Position numbers and translations under genes: made by a program
Shown: positions 2,496 to 12,659 of the stretch, one piece after another
How the letters are laid out: each line of letters begins with the position of its first letter
How positions within the stretch are numbered: the stretch's first letter is position 1
Source of the DNA: Enterobacteria phage P922
Length of the DNA: 64,000 bases
Sequence record: OR999189.1
Reading direction: 5' to 3' (one strand)
Notes under the pieces: model-generated
The model's database searches: none
What the model was told of the DNA's origin: nothing
Seen by the model: only the letters and a program-made list of their open reading frames with translations

Positions 2496-2507
2496 TTTCA
2501 CAAAGTT

Positions 2508-2537
2508 GTTTACACGTTGATGAGGTAGTGATACTAT
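2508..2537 (+). promoter_or_regulatory. T4-type early promoter (ipI)
   Basis: -35 GTTTAC 2508-2513, -10 TGaTACTAT; upstream A/T-rich TTCACAAAGTT element. Confidence 0.6.
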
Positions 2538-2567
2538 TACCTTATCAAAATTAATTAGGAAAATAAA

Positions 2568-2855
2568 ATGAAAACATTTAAAGAATTTACTTCTACAGCT
2601 ACCCCGGTTTCTACTATTACCGAAGCTACTCTTACTTCTGAAGTTATTAAAGCAAATAAAGGACGAGAAGGTAAACCAATGATTAGTCTGGTTGATGGCG
2701 AAGAAATCAAAGGTACTGTTTACTTAGGTGATGGGTGGTCTGCTAAAAAGGATGGTGCTACAATCGTTATCTCTCCTGCTGAAGAAACTGCGTTGTTTAA
2801 AGCTAAACACATTTCTGCGGCACATCTCAAGATTATTGCTAAAAATCTTTTGTAA
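2568..2855 (+). CDS. ipI: internal protein I-like (capsid-targeting leader MKTFKEF)
   Basis: 95 aa, N-terminal MKT(F/Y)xEF leader; T4 ipI position after 57B. Confidence 0.65.
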   Translation: MKTFKEFTSTATPVSTITEATLTSEVIKANKGREGKPMISLVDGEEIKGTVYLGDGWSAKKDGATIVISPAEETALFKAKHISAAHLKIIAKNLL

Positions 2856-2873
2856 TAAATAATTCACAAAGTT

Positions 2874-2903
2874 GTTTACATGGGGTTTTAGTTGTGATAC
2901 TAT
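2874..2903 (+). promoter_or_regulatory. T4-type early promoter (near-duplicate of the ipI promoter)
   Basis: GTTTAC 2874-2879, GTGATACTAT -10. Confidence 0.6.
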
Positions 2904-2933
2904 TACCTTATCAAAATTAATTAGGAAAATAAA

Positions 2934-3242
2934 ATGAAAACTTACCAAGAATTTATCAATGAAGCGGCTGCACCAAAGACATTCGTTATTAATACTCAAG
3001 CGAGTCTTGATGATGAGTACGCAGATGCAATTCTGAGGTCACTTGCTAAGAACGGCGTTGAAGTATCTGCATCGGACTTTAAGAAAGGGTCTTCCGAGAT
3101 GTTTATTTCTATAACTAAAGGATCTAAAGCTAAGATTAAATCATCATTCGGAGTTGCTCGTACCGATCAAATCGACAATCATGACTTTAAACAAACTGGT
3201 GCTAAACGGCATAATACGATTGCATCACGCGGAATAAAATAG
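2934..3242 (+). CDS. internal-protein-like with CTS leader MKTYQEFINEA
   Basis: 102 aa; promoter and first codons near-identical to the ipI cassette upstream. Confidence 0.6.
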   Translation: MKTYQEFINEAAAPKTFVINTQASLDDEYADAILRSLAKNGVEVSASDFKKGSSEMFISITKGSKAKIKSSFGVARTDQIDNHDFKQTGAKRHNTIASRGIK

Positions 3243-3253
3243 TTTATAAAACC

Positions 3254-3283
3254 GTTTACTTTTAGATAGGGTAGTGATACTAT
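3254..3283 (+). promoter_or_regulatory. T4-type early promoter
   Basis: GTTTAC ... GTGATACTAT. Confidence 0.55.
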
Positions 3284-3311
3284 TACCCTATCAACTACTG
3301 AGGAGAATAAA

Positions 3312-3497
3312 ATGAAACGTTGTGAATTAATTCGAAATGTTGCTATTGCAATTTCTGCTTCCGCTTTTAGTTTTTCAATGTTTGTTGGATTTATATGTGG
3401 ATTATTGACTACAGCAGAAAATGTTTTTTCACTTGTAGTAGCATTTTTAATTGGTTTAATCGCTATTGTTATGGATAAAATTTCTAAAGGTGAATAA
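3312..3497 (+). CDS. small hydrophobic membrane protein
   Basis: 61 aa ORF, SD GAGGAG upstream, two hydrophobic segments. Confidence 0.4.
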   Translation: MKRCELIRNVAIAISASAFSFSMFVGFICGLLTTAENVFSLVVAFLIGLIAIVMDKISKGE

Positions 3498-3902
3498 ATG
3501 AATATTAACGAATATTATGTTTATGCTGGGGATTATGCAAATCCTTCTCATTTTGAAGGTAATTTAATACCTGATAGAGTTTTTAATACTCCTTTTGAAG
3601 CGTGGAGTTGGGTTGAAAGTAAAAATGGATTTTCTTATCGTTATGTTGAAGTAACTGATTGGAAAGGAACTAAATATCCTAAAGAGCATTATTATGTAGA
3701 CCCATCTAAAGTAAATTTTCTTTTGTTCGCAGGCGATAATTACTATCCTTGCGGTGGATATGATGATTTGATTGCGTATGCTGAAACAGAAGATGAATTA
3801 CGCCAAATTATTGAAGACAATAAATCAAAACGATTTGGCGATAGTTTTGACTGGTGGCAAATCGTAAATGCCCATACACATACTATTGTTGATAAAGGTT
3901 AA
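3498..3902 (+). CDS. hypothetical protein
   Basis: 134 aa ORF, translationally coupled (TAAATG). Confidence 0.5.
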   Translation: MNINEYYVYAGDYANPSHFEGNLIPDRVFNTPFEAWSWVESKNGFSYRYVEVTDWKGTKYPKEHYYVDPSKVNFLLFAGDNYYPCGGYDDLIAYAETEDELRQIIEDNKSKRFGDSFDWWQIVNAHTHTIVDKG

Positions 3903-3904
3903 TA

Positions 3905-4192
3905 ATGATTCTTTATGCGAAAGTATCATCCATTGAAAATGGATATAAATATGATCAAGAAGCAGCTAAAGCCTTGATTGATGATTATGGCATTTTAACA
4001 TGTTTTGAAGTTGAAAAGGTTTACATTGACCGTTCATCTTCTCAAGTTAAATTAGTGAAGGAAGACCGTAAATTTAATACAGTAAATTTTGATTTCTTTA
4101 TTGAAACGGAAAAAGGTCCTCTTGAATATGATATTTTCAAGAATCCTTTGGGTCTTGAATGCATCGTAAATATGTATTATCATAAATGGTAA
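3905..4192 (+). CDS. hypothetical protein
   Basis: 95 aa ORF, coupled start TAATAATG. Confidence 0.45.
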   Translation: MILYAKVSSIENGYKYDQEAAKALIDDYGILTCFEVEKVYIDRSSSQVKLVKEDRKFNTVNFDFFIETEKGPLEYDIFKNPLGLECIVNMYYHKW

Positions 4193-10480: not shown

Positions 10481-10482
10481 TT

Positions 10483-10503
10483 TATAAATACCTTCTATAA
10501 ATA
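10483..10503 (+). promoter_or_regulatory. two T4 late-promoter boxes TATAAATA upstream of lysozyme e
   Basis: TATAAATA at 10483-10490 and 10496-10503, shortly before ATG 10517. Confidence 0.6.
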
Positions 10504-10516
10504 CTTAGGAGGTATT

Positions 10517-11005
10517 ATGAATATATTTGAAATGTTACGTATAGATGAAGGTCTTAGACTTAAAATCTATAAAGACACAGAAGGCTATTACACTATTGGC
10601 ATTGGTCATTTGCTTACCAAAAGTCCATCACTTAGTGTTGCCAAATCTGAATTAGATAAAGCTATTGGACGTAATTGCAATGGTGTAATTACAAAAGATG
10701 AGGCTGAAAAACTCTTTAATCAGGATGTTGATGCTGCTGTTCGCGGAATTCTGAGAAATGCTAAATTAAAACCAGTTTATGATTCTCTTGATGCTGTTCG
10801 GCGCTGTGCATTGATTAACATGGTTTTCCAAATGGGAGAAACTGGCGTAGCAGGATTTACTAATTCTCTACGTATGCTCCAACAAAAACGCTGGGATGAA
10901 GCAGCAGTAAATCTAGCCCAATCTAAATGGTATCGTCAGACACCTAATCGCGCGAAACGCGTAATCTCAACATTTAAAACAGGAACTTGGAAAGCGTATA
11001 TATGA
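10517..11005 (+). CDS. e: T4-type lysozyme (endolysin e)
   Basis: [33 protein letters not shown]... near-identical to recalled T4 lysozyme. Confidence 0.95.
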
Positions 11006-11283
11006 AAACATATAGTGAATTTTTATCAGAATCTATTCTTAACGAAGCTACTGACACATTTGCAACTAAGTTAGGTGCAGCTTTGGTTGAAGCCGAAAGT
11101 CTATTAGCACGTATTTCTGAACTTGCTAGTAAGATAGATACTCGCAAATTTGAACGTACCAGCGATATCGTTAAGCTTGAAGCCTTGTTGCGTATGTGCG
11201 ATAAACCGGAAGAAATCGCTAAGAACGGCTCGCTAATGAAACAACGTCTTGAAAAATATATTTCAGGCGCGTCAGAAAAATAG
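10987..11283 (+). CDS. internal-protein-like with CTS leader [11 protein letters not shown]
   Basis: 98 aa, N-terminal MKTYxEF leader, overlaps e stop. Confidence 0.55.
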
Positions 11284-11284
11284 T

Positions 11285-11314
11285 GTTTACTTCCTCCAAG
11301 GGTTTTGATACTAT
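11285..11314 (+). promoter_or_regulatory. T4-type early promoter (denV)
   Basis: GTTTAC ... TTGATACTAT. Confidence 0.55.
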
Positions 11315-11341
11315 ACATTCATCAACTACTTGGAGGAAATT

Positions 11342-11755
11342 ATGACCCGTATCAATTTAACACTTGTTTCTGAATTGGCCGACCAACATCTTATGGCTGA
11401 GTATCGTGAATTACCACGCGTATTTGGTGCAGTCCGTAAACATGTTCAAAACGGTAAATGTGTAAAGGATTTTAAAATCTCTCCAACATTTATATTAGGC
11501 ACAGGTCACGTAACATTCTTTTACGACAAACTCGAATTTTTACGTTTACGTCAAATCGAGCTAATCGCTGAATGCTTGAAACGTGGTTTCAAAATCAAGG
11601 ACACGACTGTCCAGGATATTTCCGACATCCCTGCCGAATTTCGTAATAATTATGTCCCGGACGAAGCGTCCATTGCGATAAGTCAAGCACGCTTAGATGA
11701 AAAAATTGCTCAACGTCCTACTTGGTACAAATACTATGGTAAATCAATTTACTAA
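11342..11755 (+). CDS. denV: endonuclease V, pyrimidine dimer DNA glycosylase (DenV)
   Basis: From ATG 11342: [34 protein letters not shown]... matches recalled T4 endo V. Confidence 0.9.
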
Positions 11756-11767
11756 GGAAAAATTAAA

Positions 11768-12022
11768 ATGTATCAAGAATTTATCGCTGAAGCAGATGCC
11801 AAAGGCCCCAAATTTAAAGTTAAAGCTTTCATTGGTGATGCCGAAGATTTTGGCTCATTAAAACGTAATGGGTATTCTTTCTCAGGCGGCAATGGTAAAG
11901 AAATAAACACCTATGCAAAACGTAGTGAAATTGCTTATGTTGTAGTAAGCCCTAAAGTAGATGTTGACGATATTGGATACGATTTTAACAACTTCGGAAT
12001 TATTTCTGGCGGTAAAGCTTAA
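11768..12022 (+). CDS. hypothetical protein with degenerate CTS-like N-terminus (MYQEFIAEA)
   Basis: 84 aa; N-terminus resembles the IP leader lacking KT. Confidence 0.45.
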   Translation: MYQEFIAEADAKGPKFKVKAFIGDAEDFGSLKRNGYSFSGGNGKEINTYAKRSEIAYVVVSPKVDVDDIGYDFNNFGIISGGKA

Positions 12023-12025
12023 ACA

Positions 12026-12055
12026 GTTTACGCTTAAGTATTAATATGGTATAAT
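12026..12055 (+). promoter_or_regulatory. T4-type early promoter
   Basis: GTTTAC ... TGGTATAAT. Confidence 0.6.
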
Positions 12056-12083
12056 TACTCTATCAAAACAAACAAGGAAACAC

Positions 12084-12659
12084 ATGAAAACGTATAAAGA
12101 ATTTATCGCTGAAGCTTCTGTGGAAAAGGCCAAAGGCATTAATAAAGATGAGTGGACTTACCGAGGAAATGGTTTTGACCCTAAAACAGCCCCTATTGAA
12201 CGATACTTAGCTACAAAAGCTTCCGACTTTAAAGCTTTCGCTTGGGAAGGACTTCGCTGGTGTACTGATCTAAATATTGAAGTTGATGGGCTTAAATTTG
12301 GCCATATTCAAGATGTTGTTGCTAGTAACTTGGACGCAGCTTTTGTTAAAGCTGACGGTGACCTTCGTCGCTGGAATTTAAAATTATTCTCTAAACAGAA
12401 AGGCCCAGTGTTTGTGCCTAAAGCTGGTAAATGGGTTATTGATAATAAATTAGCTAAGGCTGTCAACTTCGCCGGTCTTGAATTTGCCAAGCACAAATCG
12501 GCATGGAAAGGTCTTGATGCAATGGCTTTCCGTAAAGAATTCGCCGAGGTTATGACTAAAGGCGGCTTTAAGGCAGAACTAGATACCTCTAAAGGTACGT
12601 TTAAAGACGCTAATGTTCAGTATGCTTACGCCGTTGCTAATGCAGCCCGTGGTAATTAA
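12084..12659 (+). CDS. internal-protein-like with CTS leader MKTYKEFIAEA (IPIII-sized)
   Basis: 191 aa, Lys/Ala-rich, N-terminal leader; own promoter at 12026-12055. Confidence 0.55.
   Translation: MKTYKEFIAEASVEKAKGINKDEWTYRGNGFDPKTAPIERYLATKASDFKAFAWEGLRWCTDLNIEVDGLKFGHIQDVVASNLDAAFVKADGDLRRWNLKLFSKQKGPVFVPKAGKWVIDNKLAKAVNFAGLEFAKHKSAWKGLDAMAFRKEFAEVMTKGGFKAELDTSKGTFKDANVQYAYAVANAARGN

Follow-up and report, generated by a model that had tools for sequence, protein, structure and literature searches.

A mosaic set of probable internal-protein genes with the T4-type capsid-targeting leader in Enterobacteria phage P922

The prohead core of phage T4 holds ~360 copies each of the internal proteins (Ips) IPI, IPII, and IPIII, and the prohead protease gp21 removes N-terminal peptides from all three, as well as the 65-residue propeptide of gp23 and a 10-residue peptide of gp24 (PMC9958956). 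Published gp21 sites of like form are ITE-6 and LTE-619 in Alt and LIE-9 in gp21. By the account given in PMC9026906, the first 10 residues of IPIII suffice to bring foreign proteins into T4 heads, and in this capsid targeting sequence (CTS), targeting is described as depending mostly on residues 4 and 7 and processing on residues 8 and 10 (Mullaney & Black 1996, via PMC9026906). Injected IPI* inhibits the GmrS/GmrD nuclease (PMC3012670). In 2025, Ip2 and Ip3 were reported to inhibit two further GmrSD variants without cross-protection, so that T4 Ip1-3 each block one variant, and related phages were described as having “at least 10” Ips, counted by signal sequence, in “two Ip loci” (PMC12373910). 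Knowledge of polymorphic CTS-tagged ip genes goes back to Repoila et al. 1994 (cited in PMC3012670, PMC9026906, and PMC12373910). Here, we describe the leader-bearing genes in 64,000 nucleotides of Enterobacteria phage P922 (record OR999189.1; this whole analyzed stretch is called the window). Seven open reading frames (ORFs) carry such a leader, and we consider it very probable that these ORFs are ip genes of a T-even phage and that their leader is the T4 CTS; the standing of individual members differs.

An initial annotation of this DNA had listed at least six ORFs starting with MKT(Y/F)xEF and one with a degenerate form. The DNA pattern for the leader (ATGAAAACNTWYNNNGARTTY, i.e., ATG-AAA-ACN-TWY-NNN-GAR-TTY) matches at 2568, 2934, 5908, 11002, 12084, and 57500, all on the + strand, with a chance expectation of 0.00 and no match in 100 dinucleotide shuffles (0/100). 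A position-specific scoring matrix built from 12 leaders, without those of IPI and 61.1, was used to score all 65,950 stop-free 11-mers of the six frames. Exactly seven sites in the whole window exceeded 8 bits, namely the six pattern sites and 11762/11768; they score 16.7-37.2 bits, compared with a background mean of -29 and a standard deviation of 6.5. The earlier list is thus complete for the window, and all six MKT(Y/F)xEF starts were found, except that the start placed at 10987 is an upstream TTG, the leader ATG being at 11002.

Among the copies, Thr3 is encoded by ACA, ACT, ACC, and ACG, and position 5 is K, Q, A, S, K, and K. Four synonymous codons for one residue imply that conservation acts on the peptide and not on the DNA alone. 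An aromatic residue at 4, Phe at 7, Ile or Leu at 8, and Glu at 10 are retained in all leader ORFs except IPI, which has its own T4-type leader of 19 residues ending in ITE|A (the bar marks the predicted cut). That the residues critical for targeting and processing are kept, while position 5 and the Thr3 codon vary, supports the identification of the leader as a CTS. The comparison of N termini that had been proposed at the outset defined a common leader with a predicted [I/L]xE| site in every copy: ITE|A, INE|A, LTE|A, LSE|S (plus LNE|A), IAE|A, and IAE|A, with IKE|D in 61.1, all read from sequence only. The predicted mature products have sizes of 8-20 kDa and are mostly basic (isoelectric point [pI] 8.2-9.7), the exceptions being the 11002 product and gp61.1.

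Five of the seven ORFs (2568, 2934, 11002, 11768, and 12084) lie within the known ip loci, 57B-to-tRNA and e-to-vs.8, and encode homologs of named Ips; 5908 and 57500 lie outside these loci. The ipI gene (2568..2855, + strand; 95 aa, 19-aa leader MKTFKEFTSTATPVSTITE|A, mature part 76 aa, pI 9.0) encodes a product 99% identical to T4 IPI, with one substitution. It is the only ORF matching Pfam PF11634 IPI_T4 (E 7e-54; residues 20-95, the mature part), and none of the other leader ORFs had an above-threshold Pfam match. The ipIII gene (12084..12659, + strand; 191 aa, leader MKTYKEFIAE|A, mature part 181 aa, pI 9.5) encodes a product 92% identical to T4 IPIII over its full length that matches phrog_5341 (E 1e-115). 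The 2934 gene, ip7 (2934..3242, + strand; 102 aa, leader MKTYQEFINE|A, mature part 92 aa, pI 9.7), encodes a T2-type Ip7 with 92% identity to T2 Ip7 and 99% to the “Ip7 protein” of phage EC.W14-2, and it matches phrog_2667 “internal head protein” (E 2e-42). The internal head protein encoded at 11002..11283 (+ strand; 93 aa, with the leader followed by |SILNE|A) is of the RB69 ORF127c type and a distant Ip5 relative (48% identity to T2/RB32 Ip5); it matches phrog_3499 “internal head protein” (E 1e-46), and 100% identical RefSeq copies bear that name. The one at 11762..12022 (+ strand; 84 aa from ATG 11768, leader M-YQEFIAE|A) is of the RB69 ORF125c / VR7 ORF127c type (94% to RB69 ORF125c and 71% to the VR7 “internal head protein” ORF127c, tblastn) and falls in Ip7's family, phrog_2667 (E 7e-19). 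The matches to T4 IPI and IPIII, to Pfam IPI_T4, and to the PHROG “internal head protein” families confirm that the leader is that of the T4 internal proteins. Membership in the Ip class is close to certain for IPI and IPIII and highly likely for Ip7 and the 11002 and 11768 products. No IPII orthologue was found in the window.

The ip genes are distributed patchily. While the region 2400-12700 is matched by 1192 phage records (megablast), Ip7 is matched in 283, 5908 in 164, 11768 in 216, and 11002 in 496; 61.1 is not patchy. Presence and absence also vary among close relatives, as Ip7 is missing in Escherichia phage vB_EcoM_Nami (Nami) and in T4, Nami has an extra gene of phrog_2280 (the family of the 5908 product), and ipII is missing here. 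The predicted repertoire is a mosaic of T4-type IPI and IPIII, T2-type Ip7, two RB69-type proteins flanking denV, and the 187-aa protein encoded at 5908.

By analogy with T4, each product would bear an N-terminal CTS of ~10 residues, M-K-T-[Y/F]-x-E-F-[I/L]-x-E (19 residues in the IPI version), which would anchor the protein to the gp22 scaffolding core during prohead assembly. The protease gp21 would then cleave after the Glu of [I/L]-x-E, leaving a mature, mostly basic protein with the packaged DNA. Injected with that DNA, the mature protein would block, ahead of any phage gene expression, a specific host type IV (GmrSD-family) nuclease attacking DNA that contains glucosylated hydroxymethylcytosine (glucosyl-hmC). 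CTS targeting, gp21 cleavage, injection, and GmrSD inhibition are taken from the T4 literature, and we infer the same course for Ip7, the two RB69-type proteins, and the 5908 protein.

Several observations weigh against this interpretation. Virion presence, leader removal, and injection are known only for T4 IPI-III, and the public “internal head protein” names of Ip5, Ip7, and the RB69-type proteins are largely leader-based inference. Neither gp21 nor gp22 is encoded in the 64-kb window, the head gene cluster lying outside it. The mature 11002 protein is not basic (pI 6.3), and the first two leader residues are lost in 11768. The 164 phage records with 5908 have “hypothetical protein” or no functional name among the matches listed, including RB14 (ncORF136c) and Shfl2, and motif scans upstream of 5908 found no exact early or late promoter, only the near-match AATAAATA 45 nt upstream. 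Structure models of the 5908 protein and Ip7 had low confidence and gave no functional match.

The window encodes a DNA alpha-glucosyltransferase (38676-39878; Pfam AGT, E 5e-236) as well as a gene-42-type hydroxymethylase, so the phage DNA is expected to contain glucosyl-hmC, the substrate of GmrSD enzymes. A 280-aa glycosyltransferase is also encoded at 51842-52684, between the gene-42-type hydroxymethylase and uvsX (Pfam TAGT, E 1.7e-9). This is where T4 beta-gt would be expected, and by size and position the protein may correspond to the beta-alpha-glucosyltransferase of T2/T6; if so, gentiobiosyl-hmC DNA would be implied.

The gene at 5908..6471 (+ strand; 187 aa) is a candidate internal-protein gene with the leader MKTYAEFLTE|A. 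Its predicted mature product, which begins with AAKLPSEADLTK after LTE, has 177 aa, 19.7 kDa, and a pI of 9.5, closely like IPIII in size and pI. It has no homology to a named Ip and lies in neither known ip locus, and its family, phrog_2280, is labeled “unknown function”. Terminator-like hairpins at 5790-5813 and 6480-6498 bracket the cassette, which is inserted between the rnaC homolog and e.8; T4 has nothing at this site, and T2 also lacks phrog_2280 genes there. At the same site, Nami has a second phrog_2280 gene starting MKSYAQFLNE (L001 3600-4073). Phage PhAPEC2, a Mosigvirus, has both genes, starting MKSYAEFLTE and MKTYAEFLTE (L019 1801-2265 and 2389-2952), the second differing from the window at 5/187 residues, and the homolog in Klebsiella phage PMBT63 starts MKFKEFLAE, just after the tRNAs (L020 1783-2316).

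An exhaustive HMMER search returned a sole true distant relative of the 5908 protein, P0029 (32% identity, pairwise E 1e-13), encoded on a T4-like metagenomic contig and starting MITFNEFLNE|S; a second match (E 8e-4) was a repetitive 869-aa protein and was disregarded. An IMG/VR search for related loci gave near-identical copies only. In phrog_2280, the leader is kept while the body diverges, and its form follows the version of the tag proper to each phage (contig L011). The gene next to P0029 (SRR28624380_555336, L011 2092-2526) encodes a 144-aa protein that starts MITFKQFLNE|S and has Pfam ART-PolyVal/DUF3990 hits; it could be a packaged ADP-ribosyltransferase-like protein of a divergent T4-like phage with its own leader variant. 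An AlphaFold2 model of the 5908 protein from the single sequence consisted of helices only, including a long hairpin at the C terminus, and was too weak for a fold search (predicted local distance difference test [pLDDT] 63, predicted template modeling score 0.32). On balance, we favor the view that the phrog_2280 protein is an unlabeled member of the Ip family. The tRNA/rnaC-to-e.8 site is then, in effect, a third ip hotspot, bracketed by terminators and holding one or two leader-bearing phrog_2280 genes in several genera.

The ORF at 57500 had also been counted among the internal proteins, which is doubtful. It is gene 61.1 (57500..57664, + strand; 54 aa, MKTYKEFIKE|DMVAGD...), in the same place as T4 61.1, between 61.2 and primase 61; T4 gp61.1 starts MKTFKEFIKE, and the family of the window's gp61.1 is phrog_1823. 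A conserved gene in the replication cluster with a gp23-like product, it is unlike the ip genes in all but the leader and is unlikely to belong to the Ip class. Residues 2-38 of gp61.1 align with residues 57-93 of gp23 at 43% identity (BLASTP, E 2e-8), with Glu10 on Glu65, and gp21 removes exactly 65 residues from gp23 (PMC9958956). When a profile of 12 gp61.1 homologs was run against 1419 ORF segments (window plus T4 loci), the sole non-self hit was gp23 (E 3e-7), the Ip leaders giving E values of 0.1-0.6. Unlike the patchy ip genes, 61.1 is widespread, with 1384 Straboviridae phage records from many genera, among them phages of Klebsiella, Acinetobacter, and Aeromonas. The junction [L/I/M]xE|DMVAGD does not vary in the family, in contrast to the drifting MKTYKEF part, and some copies are already automatically annotated as “major capsid domain-containing protein”. 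The predicted cleaved form, DMVAGDSGGNPENISIGTTSGAVVNK, is an acidic peptide of 44 residues (pI 5.0), and the gene sits in the 41-61 replication cluster. A literature search found no paper on gp61.1 function.

From these observations, gp61.1 appears to be a small, conserved copy of the part of gp23 that surrounds the gp21 cut (E65|A66). It is probably not an injected Ip but a gp23-derived paralogous fragment made up of the propeptide end, the gp21 cut, and the first ~28 mature residues, which might act in the cell as a pseudo-substrate or competitor at the binding site for the gp23 N terminus or have a function unrelated to the head. The resemblance of its leader to the CTS may come from a pattern that gp21 substrates share in general, [aromatic]-x-x-F-[I/L]-x-E|x. 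Against this stand the fit of the Tequatrovirus gp61.1 leader to the CTS at every critical position (22.9 bits) and the size of the peptide, which at 4.6 kDa would escape classical gels, so that packaging could have gone unnoticed. It seems improbable that gp61.1 is a gp23-derived peptide that the prohead machinery recognizes, whether it is directed to the core and cleaved by gp21 at IKE|D or serves as a decoy for the gp23 N-terminus site; if true, this would tie an early “replication-cluster” gene to head maturation.

The initial annotation called the 11768 leader degenerate. The same leader is present, and its form is due to an ATG-to-ATT change at the start codon (11762: ATT AAA ATG TAT). 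This codon is ATT in the window, Nami, and EcNP1 and is part of ATG AAA ATG TAT (MKMYQEFI..) in RB69 and three IMG/VR contigs; more distant orthologues start MKTYQEFITE (VR7) and MKTYEEFITE (CGG4-1). Translation must start at Met3 or at the rare ATT, with the leader two residues shorter, and the gene would be co-transcribed with denV from the early promoter at 11285. Some copies may therefore be decaying, non-functional remnants, of which 11768 is the clearest candidate, and the frameshifted leader of RB69 ORF127c described below suggests that leader decay occurs. We regard this as a minor possibility for the set, as the 84-codon frame of 11768 is intact and 94-100% conserved in 60+ records, Met3 sits 9 nt from an AAGGA Shine-Dalgarno sequence, and Tyr4, Phe7, Ile8, and Glu10 are all present.

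The 11002 product is 100% identical to RB69 ORF127c from residue 13 on. Compared with window positions 11002-11060, the RB69 record (L007 735-790) has a -1/+1 pair of single-base indels that puts leader codons 5-12 out of frame (MKTYMNFYQNLS), which is either real decay or an old sequencing error. In the window, ATG 11002 overlaps the stop codon of lysozyme gene e (ATGA) and has the Shine-Dalgarno sequence GGAAAG, and an exact motif search placed two tandem late-promoter cores (TATAAATA, 10483..10503, + strand; at 10483 and 10496) upstream of e. These are the only such cores near ip genes; within the scanned ranges, the other + strand matches are at 1447, in gene 1, and at 3944, at the start of trna.2. 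The 11002 gene is thus probably expressed late, together with e. Lysozyme e itself (10517-11005, 162 aa) ends in ...TGTWKAYI, presumably a C terminus different from that of T4. The early promoter of ipIII is at 12026..12055 (+ strand; GTTTACG, then TGGTATAAT).

The order e-ip-denV-ip-ipIII in the window differs from e-ipIII-ipII-denV in T4, as the initial annotation had pointed out, but it is not unusual. RB69 has e-ORF127c-denV-ORF125c-ORF124c-ORF123c-vs.8, VR7 has e-denV-ip10-ORF127c-ip7-vs.8, and the denV-flanking layout is also found in Salmonella phage CGG4-1. In all three, every gene from denV downstream to vs.8 begins with a CTS; upstream of denV, CGG4-1 gene 113 begins with one as well, and RB69 ORF127c begins with MKTY, the remainder of its leader being scrambled. 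A phage-specific rearrangement around denV was rejected because RB69, VR7, and CGG4-1 share the order. Phages of another genus, Mosigvirus (RB69, PhAPEC2), have copies of the 5908, 11002, and 11768 genes at 94-100% identity, which points to a recent exchange of ip cassettes between genera. The set described at the outset as expanded is so relative to T4, with three Ips, and T2 (Ip5, Ip7, and IpIV), but not relative to Nami or UFV-AREG1.

At the ipI locus, three near-identical early promoters occur in tandem at 2508, 2874, and 3254. The first, of ipI (2508..2537, + strand), is of T4 type, with GTTTAC, a 15-nt gap, and TGATACTAT, and was found by regular-expression and consensus scans. A second cassette of promoter, 5' untranslated region (5' UTR), and leader start (2865..2954, + strand) repeats a first copy at 2499-2588 with 78/90 identical positions and an offset of 366 nt, including an exact block of 48 nt (2528-2575 = 2894-2941) that runs from the promoter -10 region through ATGAAAAC and takes in the 5' UTR and the first 8 coding bases of ipI and ip7. 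The near-duplication of promoter and leader noted initially is therefore real. Its attribution to cassette shuffling also gains support, as both junctions of the 366-bp Ip7 insert, relative to T4 and Nami, lie within the conserved early-promoter block GTGATACTATTACC (the -10 block). T4, Nami, and EcNP1 lack Ip7 here, and T4 and Nami run from ipI straight to trna.4. T2 has its ip7 in the same place as the window, directly upstream of trna.4, and EC.W14-2 carries the whole IPI-Ip7-trna.4 array at 99.8% identity to the window. In phage 132, another Ip (phrog_7673) replaces IPI and is followed by Ip7, and UFV-AREG1 has four annotated internal proteins at this locus. These findings support the gain and loss of cassettes by recombination in repeated early-promoter/5' UTR/leader DNA, a route that Repoila et al. 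reportedly proposed in 1994.

Such copying suggests another explanation, by which the shared N terminus would be a by-product of a mobile expression cassette (early promoter, Shine-Dalgarno sequence, and first codons) spread by recombination, and 5908, 61.1, and perhaps 11768 would be ordinary cytoplasmic early proteins not targeted to the capsid. The exact 48-nt block of ipI and ip7, the three tandem promoters, and the single base by which ipIII and 61.1 differ in their first 24 nt fit this, but it is very improbable, since upstream DNA is common to ipI and ip7 only (5908 lies behind a terminator with another upstream region, 11002 and 61.1 are coupled to e and 61.2, respectively, and 11768 comes after denV), four Thr3 codons are used, the conserved positions are those reported for targeting and processing, and the peptide motif is kept in distant homologs with different DNA.

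An AlphaFold2 model of Ip7 from a 13-row alignment has a moderately confident beta-alpha-beta-beta-alpha core at residues 12-72 (pLDDT 70-84), with the leader and a basic tail disordered. A Foldseek search of the PDB with this model gave generic ferredoxin-like/ACT/RRM folds only (best E 0.027); the 50 best matches listed did not include IPI*.

The closest relatives of region 2400-12700 are the Escherichia phages Nami and EcNP1 (Tequatrovirus ecnp1), with 97.4% identity over 97% of the query (megablast), and we assign the phage to Tequatrovirus, as a T4-like coliphage. Gene order was read by comparison with the annotations of Nami, EcNP1, and T4, and the + strand of the window corresponds to the early-transcribed strand of T4. 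The order is gene 3, gene 1 (1085), 57A, 57B (2040-2495), ipI (2568), and the additional ip gene (2934), followed by trna.4/.3/.2, ten tRNAs (4290-5116), and homologs of rnaD/rnaC (5483-5820; 90% to T4, blastn), which matched no Rfam family. Then come the 187-aa ORF (5908), e.8 and the genes after it, nudE, and e (10517), and after these the ip gene at 11002, denV (11330), the ip gene at 11768, ipIII (12084), and vs.8-like genes. The distant 3' part has 41, dmd, sp, 61.2, 61.1 (57500), and primase 61. The tRNAs are those for Gln, Leu, Gly, Pro, Ser, Thr, Met (CAT), Tyr, Asn, and Arg, compared with eight tRNAs in T4; those for Tyr and Asn are common to the window and T2, and the tRNA region 4290-5116 lacks the segB homing endonuclease.

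Ips are a first-strike counter-defense, active before any phage transcription, and the repertoire helps set which wild E. coli are infected. The set in the window would predict resistance to Ip1- and Ip3-sensitive GmrSD types and sensitivity to an Ip2-specific type; candidates for inhibiting further type IV enzymes are Ip7, the phrog_2280 protein, and both RB69-type proteins. The assay against type IV restriction that had been proposed at the outset already exists for T4 Ip1-3 (PMC12373910). The phenomenon itself is already known, being T-even textbook biology since the 1990s, and its current understanding is unchanged; in public genomes, most of these very genes already bear the name internal head protein. 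Our additions are small: phrog_2280 proteins are likely Ips encoded at a third locus, the 11768 gene has a start-codon lesion, and gp61.1 resembles gp23. The practical value of the window lies in annotation, and we suggest that the “hypothetical” phrog_2280 proteins of several hundred genomes be relabeled.

Among known systems, T4 IPI-III have the same leader, early promoters, and two loci (57B-tRNA and e-vs.8) as the window, which differs from T4 in lacking an IPII orthologue, in the order around denV, and in having four further leader-bearing genes. Of the polymorphic Ips of T-even phages (T2 Ip5, Ip7, and IpIV, Ip10, etc.), T2 Ip7 has its orthologue in 2934, at the same position, and RB69 ORF125c and ORF127c equal 11768 and 11002, in the same order around denV. 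The mix of T4, T2, and RB69 types thus differs from other T-even sets in assortment, not in kind. Members of phrog_2280 (RB14ncORF136c, RB69ORF149c-like, and Shfl2p135) are 97-100% identical to the 5908 protein, all bear the leader, and lie between tRNA/rnaC and e.8; they are nowhere annotated as internal proteins, and their site is outside the “two Ip loci” of PMC12373910.

The propeptides of gp23 and gp24 and that of Alt are, like those of Ips, cut by gp21 after the Glu of a near-N-terminal [I/L/T]-x-E. However, gp23 and gp24 belong to the shell, Alt, whose leader has 6 residues, is an ADP-ribosyltransferase of 70 kDa, and none of them has the MKTY.EF signature. In the giant phages phiKZ and SPN3US, ejection and inner-body proteins likewise have N-terminal propeptides cut after Glu by a gp21-related protease and are ejected into the host, but these propeptides are often >100 residues long, the motif is S/A-x-E, and the proteins are unrelated to Ips.

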